A stretch of DNA of 64,000 bases, taken from positions 1,116,001 to 1,180,000 of the forward strand of contig NW_027590144.1 in the NCBI RefSeq assembly GCF_964213995.1, written 5' to 3'. Positions 1-44,127 of the stretch are shown here, piece after piece. The notes under the pieces are model-generated. The model did no database searches, was not told the DNA's origin, and was given only the letters and a program-made list of their open reading frames with translations. The position numbers and the translations under genes are program-made. Source of the stretch: Mustelus asterias. Taxonomy: Eukaryota. How positions within the stretch are numbered: the first letter of the stretch is position 1; every line of letters starts with the position of its first letter.

Positions 1-240
1 GACGGCAGGCAGGCAGGTAAGCAGGCCAGACGGCAGGCAGGCAGGTAAGCAGGCCAGACGGCAAGCAGGCAGGTAAGCAGGCCAGACGGCAGGCAGGCAG
101 GTAAGCAGGCCAGACGGCAGGCAGGCAGGTAAGCAGGCCAGACGGCAGGCAGGCAGGTAAGCAGGCCAGACGGCAAGCAGGCAGGTAAGCAGGCCAGACG
201 GCAGGCAGGCAGGTAAGCAGGCCAGACGGCAGGCAGGCAG
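1..240. repeat. 28-bp tandem repeat (GACGGCAGGCAGGCAGGTAAGCAGGCCA), about 8 units visible, in the Tx1 5'UTR
   Basis: Read directly; a shorter array of the same unit lies at ~7095-7250. Confidence 0.95.
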
Positions 241-420
241 GCAACAGGCAGGCCGGGCAAGGCAGGCAGCAGCTCACCTCCCTCCTTCCTCCCCGCAGGG
301 AGCGAAAAACAAACAAACCCAACAAAACAAAAACAAAAACCGGGCGTCTCCGTGAGCAAAAACGAGAGAAAAAAAAAAATAAAGGTACTCACAAAAAAAA
401 GAAAAAAAAACAAACCCACA

Positions 421-489
421 GTTTCCGCCCGGCTCCGACCCGGGCCCCCCGCTACTCGGGCGAACGTGAACTCACCCCACCCCGGAAAC
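421..489 (-). pseudogene. tRNA-Val-derived sequence in the 5' end of the tandem Tx1 copy
   Basis: Reverse complement GTTTCCG...TCACGTTCGCC...CCGGGCGGAAAC aligns end-to-end with vertebrate tRNA-Val; anticodon and B box degenerate. Confidence 0.8.
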
Positions 490-685
490 AAAGTGCAGGC
501 GCTGCCCCAGAGGAGGCACGTTTCAGGCCGTCTGAAGCTCAATTCTCATTCAGAAAGACCTCTTTTTAGGTCAAACCAAGTAAACAAACTCAAATTAAAT
601 CAGGACAAAGTAAAAGGGGCAGCTCCACAAAAAGGAGGGGGAACAGCCCGAACAGAAATCAAAATGCAAAGGAAACTTAAAAACA

Positions 686-3600
686 TCAAATTAAAATGTG
701 ATTATTAGGGTCAATAATGCACCCCAACCCCTGCGGTGCCCAGCGGGCGCGGAAAGCGTCAACCTCGCCCGTGGACACCGCATGCTCCCTCTCCAGGGAC
801 ACCTGGCCGTGAACGTAGCCGCGGTAGAGGGGAAGACAGTCAGGATGGACAGCCCCCTCGATCGCCCGCTGCCTGGACCGGTAAATGGCGCGTTTCGCCA
901 GGCCCAGGAGCAGGTTCACGAGGAGGTCGCCATCCCGACCCTCCCCTCTCCGCACCGGGTGTCCGTAGATCAGGAGCGTGGGACTGAAGTGCAAACAAAA
1001 CATCAATAAAAGGTTCTTCAGGAAAACATAAAGGGAGTGCAGCCTAAGACACTCAACATAGACATGGTCCACGGACTCCACAAGGCCACAGAAAGGGCAG
1101 TCTTCGGAGCCCGTGAACCAGTGAATCCTACGGTTGTGCGGAACTGCTGCATGCATCACCCTCCACCCCAGGTCCCCGACGTAATTGGGGGAGATCCCTC
1201 CGTAGAGGGACCTCCAGCGGGGACCTCCGCCGCCCGGCGGCAACAAGGCCCGCCAAGGTGTATCCGGGCGACAGGCGAGGAGGCGGTAGTGGAAGGTGTG
1301 CAGCAGCAGCCCGCACAGGAAACGCCTCCGCGCGGTAGAAAAAGGCACGGAGGGCATTTCCGCGAGGCGGCTCAGGCTGTGGGGCACCTCACCCAGGGGA
1401 GGGGGCTGAGGCTTTGGGCCAATGTGGAATTCCGCCCGAACAGGGGAACGCTCGGGCGGGATCCCACCGCACGCCTGTGCCGTCTCAAGTTTGCGTGCAG
1501 TTTCGGGGCCGAGCACGACCGTCCTAAGGTCTAGGATGGCTTTGGCCGCGCGCCGGACGGACGTCCCCGCGCGCTCAGCCAGCACGCGGGGACTCATCCA
1601 GCCCGCTCCTCCGCCATCGAGCACGTCCCCGATTCTGGTCACCCCGGCGTCCACAGCCCCCCTCTCCGCCAGCCACCTGAAGTTATACGGCTGGAGGAGC
1701 GGATTCCTGAGCAGCGGCTCTCGCACGAGAGCCGCTACTCCTGACGGGGGAGAGCTGCGTCGCGAGGCGACCTTGTTCCAGACAGTGAGGAGGTCCTGGT
1801 AAAAGACGGGCAACTCCTGCAGGGCGGTCGAAGCACGCCCCAGTTCGATATGCAGGAGCTGCACGTCATAATTGAGGCCGTGCCACTGGCGGAAGAAATA
1901 CGTCGCCATGGCACACCACTGTGGAGGGGGCTCAACGTAAAGGTACCTCTGCAGGGCCTGGAGGCGGAAGGTCGCTATCTGAGTGCGGAGGCACACCAGA
2001 CCTTGTCCGCCCTCCTCAAGCGGGAGATACAGGACCGCAGCAGGGACCCAGTGCAGTCGATTGCCCCAGAAGAACCGCACGAGGGTTCTCTGGATATCGG
2101 TGACAAAGCCAGGGGGAGGGGTCAAAGGGACCAGCCGGTACCACAGCATGGAGGCGACCAGCTGGTTTATGACTCGAGCTCGCGCCCCGTAGGACAGCAC
2201 TCGGAGCAGTCCTGTCCAGCGACCCAGGCGGGCGGAGACTTTGGCCTCCAGCTCCCGCCAGTTCGCCGGCCAGGATTCCTCGGCTGGGCAGAGATGGGCC
2301 CCCAAGTAGAGGAGGTTGGTCCTGCTCCAGGTGAAAGGCCTGAGCTCCTCCGGAAGGGGGTCCGTCTCCCAAGGACCGACAAGGAGTCCGGAGCACTTGG
2401 CCCAGTTGATCCTGGCGGAGGACGCGGCGGAGTACACCGCCTGGCATTCTCGCATCCTCCGCAGGTCAGCCGGGTCCGTGAACATGAGGAGCACGTCGTC
2501 GGCGTAAGCTGACAGGACCACCCCTACGTCCGGTCCGCGCAGGACCAAACCTGACAACCTCCTCCGCAAGAGGCGCAGGAATGGCTCCACGCATACGGAA
2601 TACAGTTGGCCGGACAAGGGGCAGCCCTGCCGTACTCCTCTCCCGAAGCGAAGGGGCGCCGTCAGGGACCCGTTAACCTTAATCAGACACTCTGCGGCAG
2701 AGTACAGTAATCGGATCCGGGCGACAAACTGCGTCCCGAACCCGAATGCCCGCAGAGTCCCGAGTAAATACTCGTGCTCCACCCTGTCGAACGCCTTCTC
2801 CTGATCTAATGACAAGAAGGCGCCCGACAGACCAGCCCTCTGGGTGTGATGGATTAGGTCCCGGACCAGGTGGAGATTGTCATGTATGCAACGGCCCGGG
2901 ACCGTGTAGGACTGGTCAGGGTGGATCAAGTGGTCCAGCACGGATCCAAGGCGTGAAGCCATAGCCCTGGCAAAGATTTTATAATCCGTGCTGAGGAGGG
3001 AGACCGGGCGCCAGTTCTTGAGCAGGTGGAGATCCCCCTTCTTGGGCAGCAGGGCAATGACGGCCCTGCGCCACGAAAGGGGCATCTCCCCGGTAGCGAC
3101 GCTCTCCCCCAGGACCCCCGCGTAGTCGCTCCCCAGGACGTCCCAGAACGCCCTGAAGAACTCTACTGTCAGCCCGTCCAGCCCAGGGGCCTTGCCCCGG
3201 CTGAGCCCATTTAGGGCGCCGGTCAGCTCGGCCATGGTGGTAGGGGCCTCGAGCCTGCCGACGCCCTCCGGGCTGACCTGCGGCAGGTCCTCCCACAGAA
3301 GTCTGCGGGCATCCTCGCTGGACGGATCCGGAGAGAAGAGCGAGGTGTAATACTCCCGGGCAATGGCCCGGATGCCCTCCGGATCCGAGACGGGGGAACC
3401 GTCGTCGGCCAGCAGCGTAAGGAGCTGCTGACGGTTAGCCCGCCCTCTTTCCAGCGAGTAGAAGAAGGGGGAGCCGCGGTCCAGGTCCACCCGGAACTGG
3501 AGCCGCGACCTCACGTACGCGCCGCGAGACCTGGCAAGCTGCAGGTCCCGCAGCGCGTCCTTCTTCTCCCTGTACTCCGAACGCAGGGCCGGGTCCGCGT

Positions 3601-4579
3601 CAGGCCGACTGAGACGTGCCTCCAGGTCGAGCACCTCCTTCTCCAACTCCTCGAGCCTGGATTTCCGCCTCTTTGTCGACCCCCTCGCGTACCCCTGACA
3701 GAAGGTACGGACGTGAGTCTTGCCCACATCCCACCAGAGCCTCAAGGAGGGGAAGCCTCCCCGCTTCCTTCTCCAGCCGGCCCAGAATCGACGGAACGAG
3801 TCCAGGAAGCGCTCGTCCTCCAGCAGCGTGTTGTTAAAGTGCCAGTACGCGGACCCCCGCCGGATGCGAGACGGCGCAAAGTCCGCCCACACCAGGCTGT
3901 GGTCCGTGCTCGACACCGGCCGCATGGAGACCGAGGACACGCCGGACACGTGCGCCTTCGAAATGTAAAGGCGGTCGAGCCTGGACGCTCCGACTCCAGG
4001 CCTCACGAAAGTGAAGGCGCTGGAGCCAGGATGGAGATGCCTCCAGACGTCCACCAAGTCGTGGGACCCGATCAGGTCCCGCAACTTCACCACCGCCGGA
4101 GTGCGCAGCCAGGGGCCGGTGCGGTCCCGTGCCTCGAGGAGGCAGTTGAAATCTCCCCCGAGGATAATGCATTCGCCCCCCGCGATGGTGTCGACGTGAG
4201 CGGACACTTTCTCGTAGAAAGTCGTTTGCTGCGGTCCAGCGGTCGGGGCGTAGACATTCAGCAAGTGAATGACCACGCCCCCCTCACGGACCGTCAAGTG
4301 CAGCAACCGGCCTGGCACCGGCTCCTTGACCCCCAAGATCTCCGGCTTATAACGCGGGGCCAACAAGATAGCCACCCCGCAAGAAGCGAGCGTGAGGTGG
4401 CTCATGTAGACCCCCCCTTGCCACTCCAGGAGCCATTGGGCTTCGTCTCCCGGAACGGTGTGGGTTTCCTGCAGGAAACACACCGCATACTTCCCGTCAC
4501 GGAGGACCGAGAAGTTCTGGAACCTGCGGTGTGGCTCACTGCTGCCGTTGATGTTGAGGCTGGCTATGGTCACCTTCAT
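686..4579 (-). CDS. Tx1 ORF2: APE endonuclease + reverse transcriptase + C-terminal CCHC (1297 aa)
   Basis: ASLNING, FLQETH, GGDFN, SRLDR, TDH (APE); PGLDG, WRPVSLL, DQEKAFD, RQGCPLS, AYADD, YLG (RT); CPFC-x8-H-x4-C. Confidence 0.97.
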   Translation of the reverse strand: MKVTIASLNINGSSEPHRRFQNFSVLRDGKYAVCFLQETHTVPGDEAQWLLEWQGGVYMSHLTLASCGVAILLAPRYKPEILGVKEPVPGRLLHLTVREGGVVIHLLNVYAPTAGPQQTTFYEKVSAHVDTIAGGECIILGGDFNCLLEARDRTGPWLRTPAVVKLRDLIGSHDLVDVWRHLHPGSSAFTFVRPGVGASRLDRLYISKAHVSGVSSVSMRPVSSTDHSLVWADFAPSRIRRGSAYWHFNNTLLEDERFLDSFRRFWAGWRRKRGGFPSLRLWWDVGKTHVRTFCQGYARGSTKRRKSRLEELEKEVLDLEARLSRPDADPALRSEYREKKDALRDLQLARSRGAYVRSRLQFRVDLDRGSPFFYSLERGRANRQQLLTLLADDGSPVSDPEGIRAIAREYYTSLFSPDPSSEDARRLLWEDLPQVSPEGVGRLEAPTTMAELTGALNGLSRGKAPGLDGLTVEFFRAFWDVLGSDYAGVLGESVATGEMPLSWRRAVIALLPKKGDLHLLKNWRPVSLLSTDYKIFARAMASRLGSVLDHLIHPDQSYTVPGRCIHDNLHLVRDLIHHTQRAGLSGAFLSLDQEKAFDRVEHEYLLGTLRAFGFGTQFVARIRLLYSAAECLIKVNGSLTAPLRFGRGVRQGCPLSGQLYSVCVEPFLRLLRRRLSGLVLRGPDVGVVLSAYADDVLLMFTDPADLRRMRECQAVYSAASSARINWAKCSGLLVGPWETDPLPEELRPFTWSRTNLLYLGAHLCPAEESWPANWRELEAKVSARLGRWTGLLRVLSYGARARVINQLVASMLWYRLVPLTPPPGFVTDIQRTLVRFFWGNRLHWVPAAVLYLPLEEGGQGLVCLRTQIATFRLQALQRYLYVEPPPQWCAMATYFFRQWHGLNYDVQLLHIELGRASTALQELPVFYQDLLTVWNKVASRRSSPPSGVAALVREPLLRNPLLQPYNFRWLAERGAVDAGVTRIGDVLDGGGAGWMSPRVLAERAGTSVRRAAKAILDLRTVVLGPETARKLETAQACGGIPPERSPVRAEFHIGPKPQPPPLGEVPHSLSRLAEMPSVPFSTARRRFLCGLLLHTFHYRLLACRPDTPWRALLPPGGGGPRWRSLYGGISPNYVGDLGWRVMHAAVPHNRRIHWFTGSEDCPFCGLVESVDHVYVECLRLHSLYVFLKNLLLMFCLHFSPTLLIYGHPVRRGEGRDGDLLVNLLLGLAKRAIYRSRQRAIEGAVHPDCLPLYRGYVHGQVSLEREHAVSTGEVDAFRARWAPQGLGCIIDPNNHILI

Positions 4580-4607
4580 GTCAGCAGCTTTGTGCCACCG
4601 TCACCAC

Positions 4608-6701
4608 TTAACTAGGTGTGTGGGGGGGCGCTGGCGCAATTCTCACCAGTCCACCCCCCACCTTTTCGAGCCTGTGGAGGAACCGCAGTACCCAGCGCCG
4701 CTCTATTTTCTCCAGGCCCGCGGAGGCATGCGAGCATGCCTTCACGGACCGGACGAGCTGCGCCAGGTCCGGCCAGCGGCCGAGGGCTAGCCGGATTATG
4801 TCGGAGCGACCGGAATGGCTACGGATAAAGACCCTGAGGTCCTTGGAGGGGATGAGGGACGACTCGGTGGGGGGCACGAGGGAGTCCCCCGCCTCGCTCT
4901 GGGCAGACTCTGAAAGTGTCCCCGTGCCCTCCACCGAGCCGCTGACCTCCTCAGGGCGGTCGCCCCTCGACTCCGAGTCCCCCGCCGCAGGACGTACGGC
5001 GGGCGGCACGGAGCCACCAACTAGCCCTAGCCCCTCCCCGATCCCACCCCCAGGATCGGTGGAGGAGGGGTTCCCCCCGGGCTCACCTTTCCCGGATTGC
5101 GGGCCCCCGTGCGGCGGCGGCCCAGCCGCCCCCTCCGCCCCAGACGCTTGGACACCCCCCAGGTCCGGTGTATCCTTCGGACTGAGGTTGGGGATGTCCA
5201 GCGTCCAAGGTCGGGACGGAGAGGACGAGTGGATCGTCTCTTCGCCACCGCCGCACGAGGACATGAACATTGGAGTGTCGCCCCAGTCCCCCGACAGACT
5301 GAAGAAGAACTCCGGGTTGTAACCGGCCGGGTGGAACGGAACCGTGGGGGCCCCGCTGCCACCCGGCCCCGGACACTCCTCGCCGGGGGACTGAGGCAAC
5401 ACATGCTTGGATTTACAGGGTGCCTTGCCCCCTTTTTTCTGGGGACAAGGCACAAAGACAGGTGGGGGCACGGCAGGAGATGACTCACAAGGGGGGAGGG
5501 GCACGCAGACCTCGAACTCTACGGTGCCCGAGGGGCCCCGCCTCTTTTTGTTAACCTGCCCTCGGGCAGGCGAGGCCCCTCGCCCTCCGCCCCTCTTCGC
5601 CTTGCCGCGCCCCCCCTGCTCTCCCGTCACTTCCCCCCGAGGTGGCGGCGTCGCCAGTTTTGCCGGCTCGGGGTCGCTTACCCCCCCATGCTCGGGCCCA
5701 TGATCCCGGGCGCCGGACCCAGCACGAGGCCCCGGAGAGCCCACGGGCCCGGCAGATGGTGGTGGTGGGGGGGGTGCGCAGGTGGAGACTGAGGCGGTCC
5801 CCGAGCCGGCTGCCGGGGTGGTTGGGGTGTTTTCCCTGGGGGCCGGGGTTCCGGTACCCCCCTTCTTTTTTGTAGGTCCTTTATGGGCCTTTTGGCCGCG
5901 CGGGGGCTCCGCTCCCCCCCCGCCGGCAGCTGAGGTGGCAGCTGCTGCCGGCGTGGCCTCCCCTCGCGGGGGGGCAGATGGTACTCGCTTGGGGGGAGAG
6001 GGGGCTGCGGTGCCAGCTGCGGCCGCCTTGGGTTGGTGGTCGGCGGCCTTGGAGACGGGGCAGTTTTTCCTCACGTGCCCCGCCTCCTTACAGGCATGGC
6101 ACCGCACACCGTCCGCGGACCAAAAGACCCGGTACGTGGTCCCCTCGTGGGGGACATTGAAACCTCCCTCCAGTTCCTCCTCCCGGGCCAGGCGGACAAA
6201 AACCTGGCGCCGGAAGGAGTATATGTGGCGGAGGGAGGGGTCCCGAAGGCCGAGCGGGATCGGCTGCACCCCGGACCTGACCTCCCCCAGTAGATGGAGG
6301 TGGGGGAGGAGGAGCTCACTCGGTAGGAAGGGCGGGACGTTCGATATTACTATCTTGTGGGCGGTGGCCTCCAAAGGGTCCACCGCCAGGAACGTCCCGC
6401 CCACCGTGAGCCCCTTTTCCAGGGCGAGGCGAACCGCCCGCTCGGCCTTCAGGAAGAATACGGCCCGGCCGTACATCTTTGAGGCCGCGACAATGGCTGA
6501 GGGGCCGACAACCCCAGCCATTGCCTTAACGCAGGCCTCGATAGACATGTCGGGGTGGGCGTAGCACTTCACCCCGAGCTGCCGCGTGATTAAAGAGAAT
6601 GGCGGCAGGGCCTTGGGAGCGGCGGGGGCTCTGGCAGCCGCCACGCCCGCATAGGTGGGCCGAGAAGGCCCTGCCACCGGCGACGCTGGTGATGTCGCCA
6701 T
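4608..6701 (-). CDS. Tx1 ORF1 nucleic-acid-binding protein with CCHC zinc knuckle (697 aa)
   Basis: Tx1-type N-terminal region (ASKMYGRAVFFL, ISNVPPFLP, SFRRQV), knuckle CHACKEAGHVRKNC, long Pro/Gly-rich C-terminus; immediately upstream of ORF2. Confidence 0.92.
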   Translation of the reverse strand: MATSPASPVAGPSRPTYAGVAAARAPAAPKALPPFSLITRQLGVKCYAHPDMSIEACVKAMAGVVGPSAIVAASKMYGRAVFFLKAERAVRLALEKGLTVGGTFLAVDPLEATAHKIVISNVPPFLPSELLLPHLHLLGEVRSGVQPIPLGLRDPSLRHIYSFRRQVFVRLAREEELEGGFNVPHEGTTYRVFWSADGVRCHACKEAGHVRKNCPVSKAADHQPKAAAAGTAAPSPPKRVPSAPPRGEATPAAAATSAAGGGGAEPPRGQKAHKGPTKKKGGTGTPAPRENTPTTPAAGSGTASVSTCAPPPPPPSAGPVGSPGPRAGSGARDHGPEHGGVSDPEPAKLATPPPRGEVTGEQGGRGKAKRGGGRGASPARGQVNKKRRGPSGTVEFEVCVPLPPCESSPAVPPPVFVPCPQKKGGKAPCKSKHVLPQSPGEECPGPGGSGAPTVPFHPAGYNPEFFFSLSGDWGDTPMFMSSCGGGEETIHSSSPSRPWTLDIPNLSPKDTPDLGGVQASGAEGAAGPPPHGGPQSGKGEPGGNPSSTDPGGGIGEGLGLVGGSVPPAVRPAAGDSESRGDRPEEVSGSVEGTGTLSESAQSEAGDSLVPPTESSLIPSKDLRVFIRSHSGRSDIIRLALGRWPDLAQLVRSVKACSHASAGLEKIERRWVLRFLHRLEKVGGGLVRIAPAPPHTPS

Positions 6702-7094
6702 TGTATCAGGGGAAGTGCTACACCCACCCCGAGACTGCCCAGATGCACGGCAGGGCGTATGTGGGATGGGGAAGATAAGGCAGGGTGGGGTAGGCGGGGA
6801 AGGGTGTAGGTGCTCTCTCCTCGGAGCGAGAGAGGGAGAGAGGAGGTTGGAGGAGCAGGAGGGAGATGAGGCACAAGGCCGGTGCCCCAGTCAGGAGGGA
6901 AAAGGGGAGGGGGTGCCGGTCCCGGGGGCAGCAGTAGTGGGTAGGGGAAATAGGAAAGGTCTTCACCCCCCCCCACTGCAGATGGAAAAGAGACAGTCCA
7001 AACGCCTTCGCCCCCCCCCCCTCTCCTCCAGTCACTCCCTGTCCTCTCTTCCTCCCCCCCCCCCCCGGGAGAGCGCACCCTCCAGAGGCCGGAT

Positions 7095-7270
7095 GGCAGG
7101 CAAGCAGGCAGTCAGGCAGTCCAGACGGCAGGCAGCCCAGACGGCAGGCAGGCAGGTAGGTAAGCAGGCCAGACGGCAGGCAGGCAGGTAAGCAGGCCAG
7201 ACGGCAGGCAGGCAGGTAAGCAGGCCAGACGGCAGGCAGGCAGGCAACAGGCAGGCCGGGCAAGGCAGGC
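7095..7270. repeat. GGCA-rich / 28-bp tandem repeat in the Tx1 5'UTR
   Basis: Same unit as 1-240, with fewer copies. Confidence 0.9.
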
Positions 7271-7420
7271 AGCAGCTCACCTCCCTCCTTCCTCCCCGCA
7301 GGGAGCCAAGAACAAACAAAACAAAACAAAACAAACAGAACCGGGCGTCTTCTTAAACAAACTGAAAAACAAAGTGTGTTACTCACAAACCAAACAAAAA
7401 AAAAGAAAGCAAGTCCAAAA

Positions 7421-7490
7421 GTTTCCGCCCGGCTCCGACCCGGGGCCCCCCGCTACTCGGGCGAACGTGAAACCACTTCACCCCGGAAAC
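7421..7490 (-). pseudogene. tRNA-Val-derived head of the full-length Tx1 copy
   Basis: RC GTTTCCGGGGTGAAGTGGTTTCACGTTCGCC...CCGGGCGGAAAC; acceptor stem GTTTCCG/CGGAAAC intact, B box mutated. Confidence 0.82.
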
Positions 7491-7555
7491 AAAGTGCAGG
7501 CGCTGCCCCAGAGGAGGCACGTTTCAGGCCGTCTGAAGCTCAATGTTCATTCAGA

Positions 7556-8063
7556 GAGAGAGAAGCAGCAGCAGCTTTGCTGGACAGGAATGAGCAGCTG
7601 AACAAGCTCATTGTCCACTTCCGCATTCAGACAATGAGGAGCTGTGATTGGCTGGAGGAGCCCAGACGTCCGGTCCCCCAGGGTTCCCATTGGTCAATGC
7701 CCCGCAGACAGACAATGAGGGGCGGAGCCCCACGTGGGGGTGGGCGGGACTTTGCCCTCCAGCCGCGCTGAGCTGTTGTCCAATGGGGCAGGCTGGAAGA
7801 CCCGGACAGACAATGGTCAGTGCGCCGGCTCTGTCCCGGGCCCCGCCCCACACCCGCACATTCCACATAACGCGCATCCTCCGAAATCCACACATGCTCA
7901 TTCCCCAAATTCCGCCAATGTGCCCAAATTCCGACTCACTGCCTCTCACCGTAGCCAATGGGAAGTGTTGGAACACCGGAAGGACTCTGGTCCTTGTGTG
8001 AATGAAGATTGAGCTTCAGACGGACTCAAACTTCCTCCTTAAAAGAGGCCAATATCTGTGAGT
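7556..8063. promoter_or_regulatory. Bidirectional ZNF promoter P1 and plus-strand non-coding exon 1 (donor GTGAGT at 8058)
   Basis: Several CCAAT/ATTGG boxes, GC boxes, CACGTG, ACTTCCG; homologous to 30750-31000 and 44800-44970; leader GAATGAA-ATTGAGCTTCAGAC present in both orientations. Confidence 0.65.
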
Positions 8064-8356
8064 AAAACACTTTCTATTCTTCCCCTTTCCATTTATTTTC
8101 TCATTCTGCGGGAAATTGGGGACTTGCAGCAACTGAAGGGAAAGGAAGTGAATCCAGGGAGGCTGCAGACTCTGGAAAGGTTGGTCCAGGTCTCTCTCTC
8201 TCTCTTAAAGACATTGACATCCTTTGCTCCCTCAGCTTGACACATTGATTTGTCTGGCTAAAAGGATGATCACTTTCCTAATGTTCCTTTCCTAATGTCC
8301 CTTTCCTAATGTTTCCCAGGAGATGACTGACATTTAAGGGGACAGTAAATTAATAT

Positions 8357-9842
8357 AGAACATAGAACATAGAACATAGAACATTACAGCGCAGAACAGG
8401 CCCTTCGGCCCACGATGTTGCACCGACCAGTTAAAAAAAAACTGTGACCCTCCAACCTGAACCAATTTCTTTTCGTCCATGAACCTATCTACGGATCTCT
8501 TAAACGCCCCCAAACTAGGCGCATTTACTACTGATGCTGGCAGGGCATTCCAATCCCTCACCACCCTCTGGGTAAAGAACCTACCCCTGACATCGGTTCT
8601 ATAACTACCCCCCCTCAATTTAAAGCCATGCCCCCTCGTGCTGGATTTCTCCATCAGAGGAAAAAGGCTATCACTATCCACCCTATCTAAACCTCTAATC
8701 ATCTTATATGTTTCAATAAGATCCCCTCTTAGCCGCCGCCTTTCCAGCGAAAACAATCCCAAATCCCTCAGCCTCTCCTCATAGGATCTCCCCTCCATAC
8801 CAGGCAACATCCTGGTAAACCTCCTCTGCACCCTCTCCAAAGCCTCCACATCCTTCCTGTAATGTGGGGACCAGAACTGCACACAGTACTCCAAGTGCGG
8901 CCGCACCAGAGTTGTGTACAGTTGCAACATAACGCTACGACTCCTAAATTCAATCCCCCTACCAATAAACGCCAAGACACCATATGCCTTCTTAACAACC
9001 TTATCTACTTGATTCCCAACTTTCAGGGATCTATGCACACATACACCTAGATCCCTCTGCTCCTCCACACTATTCAAAGTCCTCCCGTTAGCCCTATACT
9101 CAACACATCTGTTATTCCTACCAAAGTGAATTACCTCACACTTCTCCGCATTAAACTCCATCCGCCACCTCTCGGCCCAACTTTGCAACCTGTCTAAGCC
9201 TTCCTGCAAACTACGACACCCTTCCTCACTGTCTACCACACCACCGACTTTGGTGTCATCAGCAAATTTGCTAATCCACCCAACTATACCCTCATCCAGA
9301 TCATTAATAAATATTACAAACAGCAGTGGCCCCAAAACAGATCCCTGAGGTACACCACTTGTAACCGCACTCCATGATGAATATTTACTATCAACCACCA
9401 CCCTCTGTTTCCTATCCGCTAGCCAATTCCTGATCCAATTTCCTAGATCACCCCCAATCCCATACATCTGCAGAAGCCTACCATGGTGAACCTTATCAAA
9501 CGCCTTACTAAAATCCATATATACCACGTCCACTGCCTTGCCCCCATCCACCTCCTTGGTCACTTTCTCAAAAAACTCAATAAGGTTAGTAAGGCACGAC
9601 CTACCTGCCACAAAACCATGCTGACTATCACCTATCAATTCATTACTCTCCAAATAACTATAAATCCTATCCCTTATAATTTTTTCCAACATCTTGCCGA
9701 CAACAGAAGTGAGACTCACCGGTCTATAATTCCCGGGGAAGTCTCTGTTCCCCTTCTTAAACAATGGGACAACATTCGCTAACCTCCAATCTTCTGGTAC
9801 TATACCAGAGGCCAACGACGACCTGAAGATCAGAGCCAGAGA
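8357..9842 (-). mobile_element. 5'-truncated CR1 LINE (RT C-terminal half, TTCTATG microsatellite tail)
   Basis: ORF 8334-9869 with NYRPVSLTS, DFSKAFD, GVPQGSVLGP, FADD; (AGAACAT)n tail. Confidence 0.93.
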
Positions 9843-10359
9843 CATGGCTCGTGTTGTTATATGATACAAATTAGATATATTATTTATGACTCTGTAATAA
9901 AATACATTTATTATTATTTATCATCTTGTAATATAGAAATGTAGCTACGTTATGTATTTCCAGTCATCTCTTTCCTCAGGCAATTGTTATTCTTGAATTT
10001 CCTTTCCACAGGGATCATTGCAGGTTGAAAATCATTAAATATATTCCAGGATGAGTTAGACTGATTTTTGACTGACAAGACTGTCAAGCTTATGGGGAAT
10101 ATATGGGGAAATGGAGAGAAAGCTAAGATGACGAGGGATTTCCTGATTCAAGGAAGTGGTGAAGCTTTGGAATTCTCTACCCTAGAGGCCTGTGGAGCCT
10201 CAGTCATCAAGAATTTTCAGGAGAGAGACATTGGTTTCTAGATATTGAAGAAAACAAGGGAGATGGATTTAGTGTGGGGAGAATGATGCTGTGTGAATGA
10301 AAATTGAACCTTCTTTGAGTCAGTGGCTGCCCTGAAGCAGCGGAGTAAATATTTCAAAT

Positions 10360-10604
10360 ACAGACTCCAACTTCCTCCAGTCTCTGTGAGTAAAGCACTT
10401 TCTTTTTTCCCCCTTTCCATTTCTTTTCTCATTCTGGGGGGAAATTGGGGATTTGCAGCAACTGAAGGGCAAGGAAGTGAATCCAGTCTGTACATTCCAC
10501 ACATTGTTAGTGCAGTCAGATAGACATATATCTGTGCTCTATGTTCTATATATCTGTTTGGCAGCCTGCATGGAGCTTTTCAGCTCTCTGTGTCCAGGAC
10601 AGGA
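10360..10604 (+). other. Second copy of ZNF exon-1 end, donor (10386) and intron 1, ending at the exon-2 acceptor
   Basis: AACTTCCTCC...GTGAGTAAAGCACTTTC paralogous to 8030-8150 and 45081-45288. Confidence 0.6.
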
Positions 10605-12825
10605 TAAACACAGTAAGAGTTTTAACAACACCAGGTTAAAGTCCAACAGGTTTATTTGGTAGCAAATACCATTAGCTTTCGGAGCGCTGCTCCTTCGTCA
10701 GATGGAGTGGAAATGTGCTCTCAAACAGGACACAGAGACACAAAATCAAGTGACAGAATACTGATTAGAATGTGAATCCCTACAGCCAACCAGGTCTTAA
10801 AGATACAGATAATGTGAGTGGAGGGAGCATTAAGCACAGGTTAAAGAGATGTGTATTGTCTCCAGACAGGACAGCCAGTGAGATTCTGCAAGTCCAGGAG
10901 GCAAGCTGTGGGGGTTACTGATAGTGTGACATAAATCCAACATCCCGGTTTAGGCTGTCCTCATGTGTGCGGAACTTGGCTATCAGTTTCTGCTCAGTGA
11001 CTCTACGCTGTCGTGTGTCGTGAAGGCCGCCTTGGAGAACGCTTACCCAAAGATCAGAGGCTGAATGCCCATGACCGCTGAAGTGTTCCCCAACAGGAAG
11101 AGAACAGTCTTGCCTGGTGATTGTCGAGTGGTGTTCATTCATCCGTTCTCGTAGCGTCTGCATGGTCTCCCCAATGTACCATGTCTCGGGACATCCTTTC
11201 CTGCAGCGTATCAGGTAGACAACGTTCGCCGAGTTGCAAGAGTAGGTACCGTGTACCTGGTAGATGGTGTTCTCACGTGAGATGATGGCATCCGTGTCGA
11301 TGATCCGGCACGTCTTGCAGAGGGTGCTGTGGCAGGGTTGTGTGGTGTCGTTCGAACAAGACTTCTTCACCGCACAGGACCTTCAACCGATGCTATACAC
11401 TAGATACATCGATGACATTTTCTTCCTTTGGAGTCATGGTGAGCGATCACTGAAACAACTATATGATGACATCAACAAGTTCCATCCCACCATCAGACTC
11501 ACCATGGACTACTCTCTGGAATCGGTTGCATTCTTGGACACATGCATCTCCATTAAGGACGGTCACCTCAGCACCTCACTGTACCGCAAGCCCACGGATA
11601 ACCTCACGGTGCTGCACTTCTCCAGCTTCCACCCTAAACACGTTAAAGAAGCCATCCCCTACGGACAAGCCCTCCATATACACAGGATCTGCTCGGATGA
11701 GGAGGATCGCAACAGACACCTCCAGACGCTGAAAGATGCCCTCATAAGAACAGGATTTGGCGCTCGACTCATCGATCGACAGTTCCGACGCGCCACAGCA
11801 AAAAACCGCACTGACCTCCTCAGAAGACAAACACGGGACAAGGTGGACAGAGTACCCTTCGTCGTCCAGTACTTCCCCGGAGCGGAGAAGCTACGGCATC
11901 TCCTCCGAAGCCTTCAACATGTCATTGATGAAGACGAACATCTCGCCAAGGCCATCCCCACACCCCCACTTCTTGCCTTCAAACAACCGCACAACCTCAA
12001 ACAGACCATTGTCCGCAGCAAACTACCCAGCCTTTAGGAGAACAGTGACCACGACACCACACAACCCTGCCACAGCAACCTCTGCAAGATGTGCCGGATC
12101 ATCGACACGGATGCTATCATCTCACGTGAGAACACCATCTACCAGGTACACGGTACCTACTCTTGCAACTCGGCCAACGTTGTCTACCTGATATGCTGCA
12201 GGAAAGGATGTCCCGAGGCATGGTACATTGGGGAAACCATGCAGACGCTACAACAACGGATGAATGAACACCGCTCGATAATCACCAGGCAAGACTGTTC
12301 TCTTCCTGTGGGGGAGCACTTCAGCGGTCACGGGCATTCAGCCTCTGATCTTCGGGTAAGCGTTCTCCAAGGCGGCCTTCACGACACACGACAGCGCAAA
12401 GTCACTGAGCAGAAACTGATAGCCAAGTTCCGCGCACATGAGGACGGCCTCAATCGGGATGTTGGATTTATGTCACACCATCAGTAACCCCCACAGCTTG
12501 CCTCCTGGACTTGCAGAATCTCACTGGCTGTCCTGTCTGGAGACAATACACATCTCTTTAACCTGTGCTTAATGCTCTCTCCACTCACATTGTCTGTACC
12601 TTTAAGACCTGGTTGATTGTAGGGACTCGCATTCTAATCAGTATTCTGTAACTTGATTTTGTGTCTCTGTGTGCCCTGTTTGAGAGCAGATTTCCACTCT
12701 ATCTGATGAAGGAGCAGAGCTCCGAAAGCTAATGGTATTTGCTACCAAATAAACCTGTTGGACTTTAACCTGGTGTTGTTAAAACTCTTACTGTGTTTAC
12801 CCCAGTCCAACGCCGGCATCTCCAC
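10605..12825. mobile_element. Penelope-like element with inverted 3' segment (10605-11350 minus, 11351-12825 plus); RT C-terminus and GIY-YIG endonuclease; nonsense codon at 12035
   Basis: RYIDDIF (RT), VVYLI..C...WYIGET (GIY-YIG) on both strands; TSD TCCAGGACAGGA at 10593-10604 and 12826-12837. Confidence 0.92.
12695..12740 (+). ncRNA. Minimal hammerhead-ribozyme motif in the Penelope pLTR (other copies ~10672-10705 minus, ~13175-13207 degenerate, ~31380-31420 minus, ~31440-31482 plus, ~45350-45385 minus)
   Basis: CTGATGA-A-GGAGC-AGA-GCTCC-GAAA-GCTA: catalytic core boxes flanking stem II; minimal hammerheads are an established feature of Penelope-like elements. Confidence 0.7.
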
Positions 12826-12837
12826 TCCAGGACAGGA

Positions 12838-13299
12838 CACAGGACAAGGCAGCCTTCACGACACATGACAACGCAGAGTCGCTGAGCAGAGGCTGATAGC
12901 CAAGTTCCACACACATGAGATCGGCCTCAACCAGGGTCTTGGGTTCATGTCACACTATCTGTAACCCCCACGACTTGGCTGGGCTTGCAAAATCTCACGA
13001 ACTGTCCTGTCTGGAGACAATACACACCTCTTTTACCTGTGCTTAACCCTCTCTCCACTCACATTTTCTGTACCTTTAAGACTTGATTACCTGTAAAGAC
13101 TCGCATTCCAACCATTATCTTGTAAATTGAGTTTGTGTCTTTATATGCCCTGTTTGTGAACAGAACTCCCACTCACCTGACAAAGGGGCAGTGCTCTGAA
13201 AGCTAGTGGCTTTTGCTACCAAATAGACCTGTTGGACCTTAACCTGGTGTTGTGAGACTTCTTACTGTGTTTACCCCAGTCCAACGCCTGCATTTCCAC
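12838..13299 (+). mobile_element. Second, short Penelope-like 3' fragment (different subfamily) at the same site
   Basis: Diverged paralog of 12370-12825; followed by a third TCCAGGACAGGA at 13300-13311. Confidence 0.85.
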
Positions 13300-13927
13300 T
13301 CCAGGACAGGAAGCAGTGAGCATGGATCTGTCAATCAGCCTCAATCAGCACCTTGAGGAGAATGGGGAGGGTGAATATTAGATACAGCAGAGTGAGAATG
13401 GAGGGAGAGTGTGTGGGATGGAGATTTACAGCTTTTGGGGAATGAGAGAGGAAAAAATGTTCCATAGAAACTAGAATTGTCTGTTCTGAATTTCTATCCT
13501 GTACTGACTGTGATGAATTTTTACAATTTTTACAATAATTACTTCTGTAAATTCCTTTTACAGGATATCAGAAGGTGAGGATTTACAGACAAAAACTCAG
13601 AACAAACATCTCATCAACATCTGACAGAGTCATTCAATTTATCGGGACCTGAATATTATCGACATTTGATTCCAGAAGGAGAAATGTTTCTCTGTTCTTT
13701 CTGCTTCACAAGATTCTCAACATCAATGCAACTGGAAAAGCACTGAGACACACACACACACACCCGAGAGTGAGCGTACTCCAGTGCACTGAGTGTGGAA
13801 AGAGCTTTAACCAGTTACACCACCTGAAAATACATCGCAGCATTCACAGCGGGGAGAGACTGTACCCGTGTTCTGTGTGAGATTTAACTGATTATTTAAC
13901 CTGGAGAGTCACAAGGACGCCCGCACC

Positions 13928-15106
13928 ATGGAGAAACCGTGGAAATGTGGGGACTGTGGGAAGGGATTCAGGCACCCATCTGCAGTGGAAACTCATCGAC
14001 GCAGTCACACTGGGGCGCAACCATTCAGCTGCTCTCAATGTGGGAAGGGATTCACTCAGTCATCCAGCCTGCAGAGACACCAGCGAGTTCACACTGGGGC
14101 GAGTATGTTTACATGCTCTCAGTGTGGGAAGGGATTCACTCAGTTCTCCAGCCTGCAGAGACACCAGCAAGTTCACACTGGGGAGAGGCCGTTCACCTGT
14201 TCTGACTGTGGGAAGGGATTCACTCGCTTATCCCACCTGCTGAGCCACTATCTCACTCACACCAATGAGAGACCCTTTAAATGCTCTGACTGTGGAAGCA
14301 GATTCAAAAGCTCTCGAGAACTGATTTCCCACCAGCGAGTTCACACTGGGGAGAGACCGTTCAGCTGCTGTGTGTGTGGGAAAGGATTTACTCAGTTATC
14401 CAACCTACTGACACACCAGCGAGTTCATACCGGGGAGAGGCCATTCACATGCTCTGTGTGTGGGAACAGTTATATTCACTTATCCAGCTTGCTAAGCCAC
14501 AAAGTCACTCACACCAATGAGAGACCCTTTAAATGTTCTGATTGTGGGAGTGGCTTCAAAAGCTCTGGAGAACTGATGTCCCACCAGCGCATTCACAGTG
14601 AGGAGAGACCGTTCAGCTGCTCTCACTGCACAAAGAGATTTAGAACGTCATCCAACCTGTGTGCACACCAGCGAGTTCACACTGGGGAGAGACCATTCAC
14701 CTGCTCTGAGTGTGGGAAGGGATTCACTCATTCATCCCATCTGCACAGACACAAAGGCTCTCACAGCAATGAGAGGCCCTTTAAATGCTCTGACTGTGGG
14801 AGTGGCTTCAAAAGTGCTGCGGATCTGTTGGACCACCAGCGCATTCACACTGAGGAGAGACCGTTCAGCTGCTCTCACTGCACAAAGAGGTTTAGAAGGT
14901 CATCCGCACTGCGGAGACACCAGCGAGTTCACACCGGGGAAAAACCATTTACATGCTCGGAATGTGGAAAGGGATTCACTGAGTTACGCAATCTACAGAC
15001 ACACCAGCTACTTCACACTGGGGAGAGGCCATTCACCTGCTCTGTGTGTGGAAACGGATTCACTCGGTCATCCCACCTACAGAGACACCAACAAATTCAC
15101 AAATGA
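13928..15106 (+). CDS. ZNF-A: tandem C2H2 zinc-finger protein, 14 fingers, no effector domain
   Basis: CxxC-x12-HxxxH repeats with TGERPF-type linkers; upstream small exon ~13305-13370 and acceptor TTTTACAG at 13563. Confidence 0.92.
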
Positions 15107-15305
15107 TGACAGGGATTGGATTCTGCCGTTATTGCTGCTGTTAATCACATCCAGGACTGAATCATGTTCATTCTGATAGTTGGTGAAGTGGGAGGATAGG
15201 AGGGTTTCTTTCTGCTGGACTGGCCATCTCATGACTTTCCCACCAGTGGGCTGATGCTCTTCGAACCCGGGAGAGCACATTTCCACTGAAATGATCCACA
15301 AAAGC

Positions 15306-15634
15306 GGGTGGCATGGTGGCACAGTGGTGAGCACTGCTGCCTCACAGTGCCAGGGACTCAGGTTCAATTCCTGACTTGGGTCACTGTGCAAACCCAGCAT
15401 AACATTCTCCCCATGTCTGCATGAGTTTCCTCCGGATGCTCCGGTTTCCTCCCACAGTCCAAAGATGTGCGGGTTAGGTTGATTGGCCATGTTAAATTGA
15501 CCCTTAGTGTCAGGGGGACTAGCTAGGGGAAATGCATGGGGTTGTGGAGATGGGGCCTGGGTGGGATTCTGGTTATTGCAGACTCGGTGGGCCGAATGGC
15601 CTCCTTCTGCACTGTAGGATTCTATGATTCTATG
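15306..15634 (+). mobile_element. tRNA-derived SINE (HE1/V-SINE-like)
   Basis: A box TGGCACAGTGG, B box GGTTCAATTCC, central TTTCCTCCGG..GCTCCGGTTTCCTCCCAC, GATTCTAT tail. Confidence 0.85.
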
Positions 15635-17100
15635 AAAAGCTGATGAAGGATATTTATTCTATCCTGGACAGTAAATACTGTTTTTCCTACCACTACAGGT
15701 AGATCTAAAGTAAGTACATTTGTCTCTGTTCCAGTGAGTCGACAGCACAGGGCCAGGCCAGTCGGCTCAATTGGTCTGTGTCAGTATTTATGCTCCACAT
15801 GAGCCTCCACCCACCCCTCTTCATCTCCCCCCATCAGCATATCCTTCTATTCCTCTCTCCCTCATGTATGTATCTAGCTTCCCCTTCAATGTATTCATGC
15901 TGTTCACCTCAACCACTCGCTGTGGTAGTGAGTTCCACATTCTCACCACTCGCTGGGTAAAGAGGATTCTCACTGAACTCACTATTGGATTATTGAACCC
16001 CTTCATAATCTTAAAGACTTCCATCAGGTCACCCTTCAGTCTTCGCTTTTCTAGAGAAAAGCAGCCCCAGCCTTTCCTGAGGGTTAAATGCTCTCAGTTC
16101 TGGGATTATTCTTGTGAATCTTTGTTGCTCCTTCTCCAGTGCCTCTATTTCCTTTTTCTAAATGGAGATCACAGATGTTGACAGTGCTCCCAGTGTGGTC
16201 TAACCCTGGTTCTAAACCAGTTGAACAGAACCTCCCTGCTGTTCAATTCTATCCCTCTGGAATGGAACCCTATACATGGGCCTCACACTTTAGGAAAGAT
16301 GTGAAGTTCTTAGAGAGGGTGCAGAGGAGATTTACGAGAATGGCTCCAGGGATGAGGGACTTCAGTGAGTTAGAGGGACTGGAACAGCTGAAATTTCTCT
16401 CTTTAGATCAGACAGGCATTAAGATTGGGAATGGGGCCATTCAGCCCATTGAATCCATGCCGGCTCTCTTTAGACCAAACCGTTGTCCTGATCTCTCTCC
16501 GTATCCCTGCGGATTGATTTCCCTGATATGCCCGTCCAATTTCCTTTTGGAAACATTCCATTATCTCTGCTTCAGCCGCTCGTAAGAAGTGAGTTCCAGA
16601 TATTTACCACTTCAAATGCAAACGAGGAGCAGAGAGCACAAAAGGAGGCGGTGTGACCCATTGTGCCCCTGCTGCCTCTTCAAACATTCTCAGCAACAAG
16701 GTCAAGGAGGCCATGTTAAATTCTAACATGTGACTGGAGCTTTATTTTAAAAATTAATGTTGGATTCACCTACATGCTTGTGGAAGCTGCATTGCTGGCA
16801 GGAATTGTATAAACTAAAAATTTCTTCTATGAATTTGATCAGTTGGAGGACATTATATTCTGTCAAATCTGGCTCAAGAATAAGGTTGATTGCTCAGTTC
16901 AAGTAAGAAGGAAAGCTATTGGCTTGCAGCAAGTGTCTTTTCGAACCAGTATATCTTGTATTAACCTTATTCAGTTGTGGGACATGGGCGTCGTTGGCTG
17001 GCCAACATTTATTGCCCATCCCTAGATGCCCTTGTTCAGAGGGCAGTTGAGAGTCAACCACATTGTACGAACCAAATGTGTTCATTAAATATTACTGTAT

Positions 17101-28845: not shown

Positions 28846-29511
28846 TCACTCGTGAACTTGTTGGTGTCTCAACAGGTGGGATGAAACTCTGAATCCCTTC
28901 CCAAAGGTGAATGGCCTGTCTTCAGTGTGAACTCGCTGGTGTCTCTGCAAGTCAGATGATTGAGTGAATCCCTTCCCACACTGAGAGCAGGTGAACGGTC
29001 TTTTCCCAGTGTGAAACTGCTGGTGTCTGTTCAGGTCGGATGACTGAGGAAATCCCTTCCCACACTGAGAGCAGGTGAATGGCCTCTCCCCAGTGTGAAC
29101 TCGCTGGTGTGACTGCAGGTGAGATGACCGAGTGAATCCCTTCCCACACTGAGAGCAGGTGAATGGCCTCTCCCCAGTGTGAACTCGCTGGTGTACCCGC
29201 AGGTCAGATGACCAAGTGAATCCTTTCCCACACTGAGAGCAGGTGAATGGCCTCTCCCCTGTGTGAACTCGCTCGTGTGTCCGCAGGTCAGATGGCCAAG
29301 GGAATCCCTTCCCACACTGAGAGCAGATGTACGGCCTCTCCCCAGTGTGAACTCGCTCGTGTGTCCGCAGGCCGGATAACTGAGTGAATCCCTTCTCACA
29401 CTGAGAGCAGGTGAACGGCCTCTCCCCAGTGTGGCTGCGCCGATGAGCTTCCAGCAGGGATGGGGCTCTGTATCCCTTCCCACAGTCTGCACATTTCCAT
29501 GGTTTCTCCAT
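28846..29511 (-). CDS. ZNF-B: C2H2 zinc-finger protein, 7 fingers plus a last finger lacking CxxC
   Basis: MEKPWKC start shared with paralogs; homogeneous [10 protein letters not shown] fingers. Confidence 0.88.
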
Positions 29512-30283
29512 GGTGCAAGTGTCCTTGCCTCTCGCTTGGGTGGACAATCAGTTGAAGCCTCGTCCTCACACAGAACATGTATACAGTCTCTCTCCGCTGT
29601 GAATGGTGTGATATTTATTCAGGCTGTGTAACTGGTTAAAGCTCTTTAGACAGTGCACTGGAACACTCTCACTCGACTGTGGCAGTGTGTTTGTGCTTTT
29701 CGAATCACACTGATATTTGAATTCTTTTCAAATCAACAGACCAGACAATCATTTCTCCTTCTGGATCCAACAGCCGATGATATTCATGTCCCAGGGAATA
29801 TGACTCTGTTAGATCTGGACATGATGTATGAGATTTCAGCCTGTGATTCCTCTTTCAATATCCTGTAAAACGAGTTTACAAAAGGTATCATTGTCAGTAC
29901 AGGTTAGAAATTTAGAGGCCAATTCTAATTTCTGTGGAACATTCTTTCCTCTCTCATTCCCCAAAAGCTGTGAATCTCCATCCCACACACTCTCCCTCCA
30001 TTCTCACACTGCTGTATCTAATATGCACCCTCCCAATTCTCCTGAAGGTGCTGATTGAGGCTGATTGACAGATCCATGCTCACTGCTTCCTGTCCTGGAC
30101 ACAGGGAGCTGAAAATCATCAAGCTGACAACCATGTTAAAGTTTTACATTTGGACATAAGTGAGCAGATTGATGATGTATGTATTACCTGGTTACAGATA
30201 TGAAGAATGTGAGGAGGATTATTATTTTGGCAGCGAGTGGTGACTTGGAAGTTAAAAATTGAAGCCCAGAGTTTCGTACTCCT

Positions 30284-30572: not shown

Positions 30573-30629
30573 GAATGAGAAAAGCAATGGAAAGGGGGAG
30601 AAAAGAAAGTGTTTTACTCACAGATGTTG

Positions 30630-30733
30630 CCTCTTTTCAGGCCAAACCAAATAAACAAACTGAAGTTAAATCAGTAAACAGACTAGACAGTGCAAAGTTA
30701 CTGCCGTGACTCGGATTCGAACCGAGGTTGCTG
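30630..30733 (-). mobile_element. Candidate Tx1-mobilised SINE: tRNA-His 3' half (30702-30733) + spacer + Tx1-like 3' tail (30630-30674)
   Basis: RC CAGCAACCTCGGTTCGAATCCGAGTCACGGCA matches the 3' 32 nt of vertebrate tRNA-His-GTG; tail is 40/45 identical to the Tx1 terminus at 559-603. Confidence 0.75.
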
Positions 30734-31539: not shown

Positions 31540-32108
31540 TGTCCAGGACAGGAAGCAGTGAGCATGGATCTGTCAATCAGCCTCAATCAGCACCTTCAGG
31601 AGAATTGGGAGGGTGAATATTAGATACAGCAGAGTGAGAATGGAGGGAGAATGTGTGGGATGGAGATTCACAGCTTTTGGGGAATGAGAGAGGAAAGAAT
31701 GCTCCATAGAAACTAGAATTGTCTGTTCTGAATTTCTGTCCTGCTCTGACAATGGTGAATTTTGTAAACTTCTTTCACAGGATATCAGAAGATGACAGTT
31801 TACAGACAGAAATCTTAAACCAAACTTCACATCAATATCTGACAGAGTCACTCAATTCATCCGGACCTGAATACCTTTGAATCTAGAAGGAGAAATGTTT
31901 CTCTGTTCTGTCTGCTTCAGAAGATTTTAAACATCAGTTTGGCTGGAAAAGCACCGACACACATAAACACACCCGAGTGAGAGTGTTCCAGTGCACTGTG
32001 TGGAACCAACAGTTACACAGCCTGAAAAAAACATTGCAGCATTCAGAGCAGGGAGATTGTACCCGTGTTGTATTGATGCATGAGGAAAGATACAAGGAGA
32101 CCCACACC

Positions 32109-43341: not shown

Positions 43342-44127
43342 CTACACAGAGCAGCTTAACGGTCTGTCCCCAGTGTGAACTCGCTGGTGTTTCCGCAGGT
43401 CGGATGACCGAGTGAATCTCTTCCCACATTGAGAGCAGGTGAATGGTTTCTCCCCAGTGTGAACTCGCTGGTGTCTCTGCAGCGTGGATGACCTTTTAAA
43501 CCTCACTGAACATTGTGAGCAGCTGAACGGTCTCTCCTCAGTGTGAATGCGCTCATGCTCTCGAAGAACTGCAGCACTTTTGAAGCCGCTCCCACAGTCA
43601 GCACATTTAAAAGGTCTCTCATTGCTGTGAGTACCTTTGTGTTTCATGAGGCTGGATGAAGCAGTGAATCCCTTGCCACACATGGCGCAGGTGAATGGTT
43701 TCTCTCCAGTGTGAACTCGCTGATGTACCCGCAGGTTGGATGACCTTTTAAATCTCTTTGTGCAGTGAGAGCAGCTGAACGGCCTCTCCTCAGTGTGAAC
43801 ACGTTGATGGGACACCAGTTCCCAAGAACTTTTGAATCCGCTCCCACAGTCAGAGCAGTTGAAGGGTTTCTCACTGGTGTGAGAGAGATTGTGACTCAGC
43901 AGCTGGGATGAGCGAATGAATCCCTTCCCACACATGCTGCAGGTGAACGGCATCTCCCTGATATGAACTTGCTGGTGTGTCAGCAAGTCGGATGACTGAA
44001 TGAATCCCTTCCCACACATGCAACAGGTGAATGGTCTGTCCCCAGTATGAATGTGTCGATGAACTTCAAGCCGAGATGGGAATCTGAATCCCTTCCCACA
44101 GTCCCCACATTTCCACGGTTTCTCCAT
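43342..44127 (-). CDS. ZNF-D: C2H2 zinc-finger protein, 9 fingers, ending at a premature stop
   Basis: MEKPWKC start; ends ...PLSCSV* within a finger. Confidence 0.85.

Follow-up and report, generated by a model that had tools for sequence, protein, structure and literature searches.

A tRNA-Val-derived module at the head of a Tx1-like LINE in zinc-finger first exons of Mustelus asterias

The LINE and its two heads in the window

The DNA analysed here, called the window, is a whole stretch of 64,000 nt from Mustelus asterias (GCF_964213995.1, contig NW_027590144.1, forward-strand positions 1,116,001-1,180,000). Its minus strand carries one full-length APE-RT LINE with ORF1 at 6701-4608 (697 aa) and ORF2 at 4579-686 (1297 aa). 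The APE endonuclease and reverse transcriptase of ORF2 were matched by Pfam PF03372 and PF00078, and Xenopus Tx1 ORF2 is 49% identical to it, with 99% of residues 1-500 covered; the match of highest identity was a shark protein (64%). By these comparisons ORF2 appears close to that of Tx1L and the element to be Tx1-like, while the trees built here contain copies of this LINE family only. A CCHC knuckle in ORF1 is a feature of the Tx1 clade, and the one found here is weak (zf-CCHC, E 0.0048, 17.4 bits, below the cut-off of 20.8); a search for ORF1 homologues returned three sturgeon proteins only. The C-terminal half of ORF1 (element 1680-2880, window ~4670-5870) is 12-18% divergent between old and young lineages, compared with about 3% for ORF2, and its second codon positions evolve as fast as four-fold sites.

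The 5' UTR is 851 nt long, has no ATG past position 3 and includes a 28-nt CCTG-rich tandem repeat (window 7090-7270 and 1-270) whose copy number is very variable among elements. On the minus strand, the head of this copy (copy 1) begins with a copy of zinc-finger exon 1 and a tRNA leader remnant (7491-7553), of which the 5' 28 nt are host-like and the 3' part has diverged. It continues through the tRNA-Val-derived module (7420-7490), a T-rich stretch made of a decayed pre-tRNA trailer and a second exon-1 remnant (7387-7419), and a host-derived 5' splice donor consensus, GTGAGTA (7380-7386). Upstream, a CCAAT-box-rich region (7554-7999) is predicted from its sequence to be a bidirectional host promoter shared with a divergent zinc-finger gene, whose exon 1 and donor (8000-8066, plus strand) contain a short LINE-3'-end-like remnant at insertion site 2. 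Copy 1 ends without poly(A) (559-572, minus strand) and is directly followed by a second copy, whose exon-1-derived head (490-552) adjoins it at a tandem junction and leads into a further module (420-489) and a host-derived donor consensus (386-392), all on the minus strand. The earlier note had spoken of two copies of the LINE; two heads with the module are indeed present, but the second copy consists of a head followed by some 1.8 kb and is not a full element. The module spans include the discriminator base, and the module starts about 62 nt inside the element.

The same note had described a full-length tRNA-Val-like sequence in both heads, in sense with the LINE, with the acceptor stem kept and the anticodon and B box decayed, and this description holds for both modules. 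Compared by pairwise blastn with tRNA-Val(AAC/CAC) genes of the same genome, the modules are 77.3-77.8% identical over 72-76 nt (E 2e-8 to 8e-8), so the resemblance to genuine tRNA-Val genes is not due to chance. The 7-bp acceptor stem and the 5-bp T stem are intact in both, and all 20 cloverleaf pairs are possible in copy 1; the anticodon loop, the A-box T8 and the B-box T54/A58 are altered, loops have changed, and the D-loop of copy 2 has newly acquired a 5' splice donor. Scoring with tRNA models, suggested earlier as a check, misses these young modules: ARAGORN reported no tRNA in the window, and the Rfam tRNA model matched nothing either, whether at E<=1 over 1-16000 or with the cut-off relaxed to E<=10 over 7330-7600. 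Folded by themselves, the modules reached z-scores of only -1.2 and -1.4; in sequence context their acceptor stem formed with a probability of 0.00-0.55, a test made uninformative by a real tRNA gene that likewise scored 0.00. The T-runs reported behind the module exist, but they align to the tRNA trailer and the decayed second exon-1 copy and so are not simply a Pol III terminator.

Zinc-finger first exons as the insertion target

The roughly 70 nt upstream of the module reproduce the first exon of a multicopy group of C2H2 zinc-finger genes, with 3 of 28 positions changed in the 5' part and 19 of 38 in the 3' part. Non-tandem copies of the LINE have a CCAAT-rich promoter-like region upstream, and their 3' end is followed by a short motif that closes with a splice donor. 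This motif occurs intact 168 times in the genome; three occurrences lie in the window without a full element, each on the same strand as a downstream C2H2 zinc-finger ORF, and in 6 of 7 terminal loci a same-strand zinc-finger ORF follows 1.7-8 kb behind the 3' end of the element. A spliced retrocopy has the motif joined exactly to the conserved acceptor of a zinc-finger coding exon, which identifies the motif as exon 1 of zinc-finger genes; it begins at insertion site 1, and this single retrocopy tentatively places site 1 at or near the host start site. The retrocopy is short and represents the 5' end of a zinc-finger mRNA, exon 1 plus coding exon (L375, G000:C13:99105842-99105896). The window itself holds five C2H2 zinc-finger genes (13892-15106, 28846-29547, 31887-33287, 43342-44160 and 46276-47073) whose orientation alternates and whose coding exons are preceded by a conserved intron block and acceptor. 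Very short LINE 3'-end remnants lie at site 2 inside host exon 1 at window 8030-8050 (plus strand) and 30620-30700 (minus strand), and some such remnants are common to many genes.

All 107 distinct head contexts lie at a zinc-finger promoter or behind another copy: 54 follow the 3' end of another copy, 48 have CCAAT boxes nearby and 5 share the same promoter-proximal sequence. The exon-derived leader is present in every one of the 89 module-anchored heads (88 by motif, one by eye). Kojima regards a LINE as target-specific when more than 20% of its flanks are of one type, and by this measure the full-length copies are target-specific. When truncated copies are included, site 1, the one site that this genome-wide count covers, borders 116 of the 1377 exact 3' ends, with 15 of 100 listed ends belonging to one micro-tandem; among 30 copies sampled on the largest contig (C1), one lies in the exon and 24 are followed by G/A/C-CAA, like site 2. 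Because of these counts the endonuclease is judged not strictly specific. The micro-tandem just mentioned is a micro-satellite that arose from a tandem junction, with 15 copies of the 3' end/target junction at 132-bp spacing (G000:C89:2431502-2433792). A group of 22 young tRNA-less heads (L193-L214) lies entirely at tandem junctions at site 2; nine of them were read further and have no ORF body within 7.5 kb, and the group is possibly a non-autonomous derivative.

That the element is co-transcribed from a host promoter had been proposed earlier; the proposal gains support from the promoter and exon-1 position of the heads and from the GT-AG deletions described below, and the LINE is likely to be transcribed from the zinc-finger host promoter. 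The host gene would then splice the LINE out. One search for a retrocopy linking the LINE-head donor to a zinc-finger exon found none, its single match being of the host type. Full-length copies occupy zinc-finger first exons and carry both the exon and splice donors, which is a stronger finding than the module, and the targeting of this exon is also the more novel part. If true, target-specific retrotransposition would reach beyond RNA genes and repeats and include the start sites of a protein-coding (zinc-finger) gene family. Zinc-finger genes in other vertebrates include transposon repressors.

Target-specific LINEs of the Tx1 clade, namely Tx1L, Keno, Kibi, Koshi, Mutsu, Dewa and Tx1-Mar (PMC4494074, PMC3706591), resemble this LINE in the accessible portions of those papers by their APE and RT, two ORFs, multicopy target and tandem stacking. 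The targets listed there are RNA genes, microsatellites and transposons, whereas this LINE targets the first exon of genes in a protein-coding family, and its truncated copies are mostly dispersed. The literature searched, which comprised neither Repbase reports nor the original Dewa paper, held no Tx1 family that targets zinc-finger first exons, although one may already be catalogued, and no LINE with a whole-tRNA head. Co-option of host promoters is described, in the parts of the sources that were available, for R2 in 28S rRNA and SVA-MAST2 (PMC4494074) and for RAP1GDS1-L1PA2 (bioRxiv 10.1101/2025.02.02.635956), where transcription comes from the flank and host sequence stands at the 5' end, as would be the case here. 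Compared with those accounts, the arrangement proposed here extends to the whole family and would be restored by targeting with every new insertion, and no self-cleaving 5' processing is evident.

Probable capture, splicing and loss of the tRNA

Ten older heads of the LINE, from copies whose ORF2 is about 5% different from that of the window copy (six measured), carry a near-intact tRNA-Val with the anticodon GAC, in which G34 is present in 10 of 10 and C54 in 9 of 10, with no CCA. ARAGORN calls tRNA-Val(gac) in eight of the ten, and one old head (L127) scores 60.6 bits with the Rfam tRNA model compared with 65.8 for a tRNA gene. A 3-nt leader and a 15-nt trailer in these heads match one multicopy tRNA-Val gene family (L251), the trailer at 11-13 of 15 nt as against 4-8 for nine other genes and the leader at 2-3 of 3. 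A large dispersed tRNA-Val gene family (AAC, CAC and one GAC; L056-L062 and L251-L272 on contigs C71-C751) is found on zinc-finger-cluster contigs, and a first look at the genome gave 1135 tRNA-Val candidates. The available portion of one source places the addition of I34 at the tRNA precursor stage (PMC4446420), with which G34 would be compatible as an inosine read-out on the precursor. However, one of 20 tRNA-Val genes inspected (L258) also has GAC, so G34 need not be inosine.

The order of the old heads is host exon 1, 3-nt leader, tRNA, trailer, second exon-1 remnant and splice donor. The tRNA cassette starts 14 nt after site 2, and target duplications of 13-15 nt were found in 4 of 30 dispersed copies, a match in length that supports capture during insertion. 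At its other end the cassette meets, through a short microhomology, a second and 5'-truncated copy of exon 1 with its donor. Heads with a plain exon and donor but lacking the tRNA also occur. In the midpoint-rooted 5' tree, in which deep supports are low, two tRNA-less copies form the deepest branch and a third nests among old tRNA-bearing copies, and the heads form a ladder from old through intermediate to young. The simplest history is likely to be a single capture of a pre-tRNA-Val by template switching from truncated LINE cDNA, and this origin of the module appears well supported. One genome would then show, as a dated series, how a small RNA came to supply the new 5' end of a LINE and how this end was eroded afterwards.

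Chimeras of small RNAs and LINEs have been described as U6/L1 and as tRNA/L1 at 21 human loci (bioRxiv 10.1101/2025.02.02.635956). As in the accessible account of these, the small RNA here would have been joined to the 5' end of a truncated LINE within one insertion, and the genome also contains U2/Tx1 chimeras. A fusion in sense and a 14-nt duplicated segment are seen at the 5' side, observations that cover the 5' junction of the founder. The human tRNA chimeras of that account are mostly halves and antisense, whereas the present case is a whole sense pre-tRNA with leader and trailer that became an autonomous lineage of about 100 copies. The U2 chimeras are two adjacent fusions of the 5' ~95 nt of U2 snRNA, in sense, with 5'-truncated LINE pieces (L111, G000:C1:112239584-112242604; 99.7 and 99.5 bits with Rfam).

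Three classes of deletion in the heads have exact GT...AG ends and combine two donors with two acceptors. The D-loop donor, which arose from changes within the tRNA sequence, is present in copy 2 (468-478) and is the 5' breakpoint of classes A and B elsewhere. In class A it is joined to a 3' splice acceptor with a pyrimidine tract and CAG (7362-7369), with 115 nt deleted, and in class B to a second acceptor, AAG (7288-7297, also 285-294 in copy 2), with 186 nt deleted; class C joins a donor just past the module to the same AAG, losing 130 nt and keeping the module. A donor-like site farther downstream (7274-7283, also 271-280), like the others on the minus strand, is where a polyadenylated retrocopy ends. 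Among the data sets listed as carrying the head, none was of RNA; contigs from four runs, which have no bearing on expression, contain these head variants as well, together with one junction of the class C type. Copies with GT-AG deletions can be read as fossil evidence of heads that passed through the spliceosome.

These deletions also bear on whether the module is needed. The pattern-based module census is biased, as its pattern fixes stem positions, and anchors upstream and downstream added 22 and 31 heads, which shifted the reading toward a dispensable module; of the 22 heads missed by the module pattern, 20 are without most or part of it. Over the 107 head contexts the module was lost by exact GT-AG deletion in 14 + 2, had lost its 3' strand in 3 and was kept in 88, so that all or part is missing in 19 of 107. 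Class A and B copies are full-length, with differing 3' flanks and body differences of 0.4-1.9%, which indicates that they were independently inserted and that RNAs without the module do insert. ORF2 is intact in 5 of 10 class A/B copies (3 of 8 in class A) and in 9 of 10 module-bearing copies, and given the lower share in class A some of its members may have moved in trans. The module is most likely dispensable at the insertion step.

A close parallel is offered by the SpIREs of human L1, retrotransposed copies with precise intron loss inside the 5' UTR (PMC5860796). In the available part of that work, as here, new splice sites appear as the UTR evolves, and precise GT-AG deletions are found in independent insertions. 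L1 SpIREs are described there as losing their promoter and being dead ends, whereas in this LINE the host promoter would stay and half of the class A/B copies have kept ORF2 intact.

Retention of the fold and competing explanations

The old and young majority sequences differ at 4 of 40 paired positions and at 16 of 33 unpaired ones (p=4e-4), and the same test without the positions fixed by the pattern gave 3/22 and 16/32 (p=0.009). All seven stem changes present in at least 7 of 86 copies keep pairing, while in old decaying copies eight of 16 keep it and eight break it, a difference with p=0.052 for a cut of at least 7 that was chosen post hoc. The only pair altered on both sides is T6-A67, which became C6-G67 via T-G; two pairs are new in the D stem, and every haplotype but one has kept them. 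All 20 pairs are possible in 69 of 89 modules, and 20 of 89, multi-copy variants included, have a broken pair. The check for covariation across copies, suggested earlier, thus produced one compensatory pair, but the signal is weak (one pair, 13 of 500 shuffles, in an alignment that includes the source genes). Some retention of the RNA fold, as proposed in the earlier note, is supported by this pair and by stems that changed less than unpaired positions, but the stems changed at the background rate. Four-fold sites of the same lineage changed at 30/696 in ORF2 and 41/372 in ORF1, the latter indistinguishable from the stems (p=1.0), with loops and flanks about five times faster than stems. On one branch about a dozen changes fell in the 73 nt of the module, compared with about 1% in ORF2 and about 7% in the 5' region of ORF1.

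The background rate of the stems favours a purely neutral relic in a fast-mutating head with an A-to-G bias, possibly through A-to-I editing in each cycle. The same reading draws on an excess of A>G over T>C in the module (13 against 3, p=0.014) while the ORFs are symmetric (72 against 67), on the loss or truncation of the module in some heads and on the broken pairs just mentioned. Since A>G in an A-U pair keeps pairing automatically, this bias weakens the pairing evidence for selection. However, the stems form an island, 10% changed between flanks with 19/38 and 22/32 changes (p=1.4e-4); transversions and deletions, from which the stems are exempt, account for many of the loop changes, and the passage of T6-A67 to C6-G67 through T-G and the two well-kept new pairs of the D stem also speak against pure neutrality, which we think rather unlikely. 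The data fit weak selection on the stems, selection against tRNA identity, an editing-like bias, or a mix of these. Weak selection on a folded spacer that affects splice-site choice may have kept the stems, a suggestion on which we stop just short of even, and a part played by the A-to-G mutational bias in their retention is possible though somewhat doubtful.

The explanation that we prefer, and hold to be probable, is that a tRNA-Val was captured once, inside the zinc-finger exon 1 copy at the front of a host-promoter-driven, splice-donor-carrying Tx1-like LINE, and has since been a dispensable and partly fold-preserving relic. The founder chimera would have inserted at the site from which the duplicated exon segment runs on for another 14 nt. 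Transcription by Pol II from the host start site would cover the whole head; unspliced RNA would retrotranspose, with the shared exon-1 sequence helping its 5' end to join a new target. The host mRNA would be freed of the LINE by splicing between the head donor and the coding exon of the zinc-finger gene, so that an insertion at this site could be tolerated. A more far-reaching idea is that the LINE has made the zinc-finger first exon a renewable safe harbour, taking the host promoter and bringing an exon 1 and splice donor of its own with which the host gene can still be spliced correctly, and that the captured pre-tRNA was selected into a non-cleavable cloverleaf that tunes host splicing against full-length LINE RNA; this we regard as fairly unlikely. 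The available part of the work on nimtRNAs describes intronic tRNA look-alikes that enhance splicing (PMC7722341), which by analogy would resemble the module as a cloverleaf in Pol II pre-mRNA near a 5' splice site that is not processed as a tRNA. As described there, nimtRNAs are of mitochondrial derivation and act 50-200 nt into the intron, whereas the module would have begun 3 nt behind a donor and now lies mostly upstream of one.

The other explanations give the tRNA a more specific part. A full-length sense tRNA near the 5' end, near-intact in old copies, recalls tRNA-headed SINEs and their internal Pol III promoter, but even the oldest copies have a damaged B box (C54 in 9 of 10), T runs follow the module, the element begins about 62 nt upstream of it and the heads bear spliceosomal deletions. 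T54 and A58 are altered in 86 of 86 modules and T8 in 77 of 86, which bears out the earlier view that the module is not a Pol III promoter; that it is one seems extremely improbable. The module might instead be the relic of a tRNA-array target like that of Dewa, left when an ancestral LINE landed next to a tRNA-Val gene and took the gene with it. The large tRNA-Val gene family on the same contigs and the presence of both leader and trailer speak for this suggestion of the earlier note. However, the flank derived from the gene is just a 3-nt leader and a trailer of about 15 nt, which is what a precursor RNA would carry, and zinc-finger exon 1 stands on both sides, with tRNA-less copies already in that exon. 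Dewa occupies the spacer of tRNA gene arrays, whereas this LINE occupies zinc-finger exon 1 or another copy, and none of the copies examined is inserted at a tRNA gene; this reading is already largely refuted and very improbable.

The earlier note had favoured a mascRNA-like signal for RNase P or Z that trims or stabilises a co-transcript. The acceptor and T stems are intact in most copies and U55 and C56 are kept, but these enzymes read the tRNA elbow, according to the accessible portion of one source (PMC4810234), and a mascRNA-type elbow (G18, G19-C56, T54-A58) is not intact in the modules, with G19 lost in 35 of 89 besides the T54 and A58 changes. None of the 89 modules begins at the tRNA 5' boundary, where a pile-up of 5' truncations had been sought, and one or two truncations lie near the 3' boundary. 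On contig C3, a polyadenylated, duplication-flanked retrocopy runs uncut from the 3' end of the previous copy across the whole module plus 12 nt; and the caveat raised earlier, that about 70 nt upstream survive and so that template was not cut by RNase P, was right, this sequence being host exon 1. The early and quick loss of Pol III and elbow determinants makes it unlikely that the module acts as a promoter or is efficiently cleaved by RNase P/Z. Given also the 19 of 107 heads in which it is missing or cut, such a processing role is improbable. Four independent off-target near-full-length insertions, none of which includes the module, provide the remaining point in its favour, since one of them starts no more than 1 nt from the RNase Z site and another at +1 or +9; stalling of the reverse transcriptase at the stem explains a truncation at the 3' boundary equally well, and one in four is near chance. 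The read-through retrocopy (L123/L190, G000:C3:156439170 region) has an L1-like duplication and ends at the donor-like site, and a near-full-length copy in a CCAAT-rich satellite (L358, L359, G000:C21) starts at the last base of the module.
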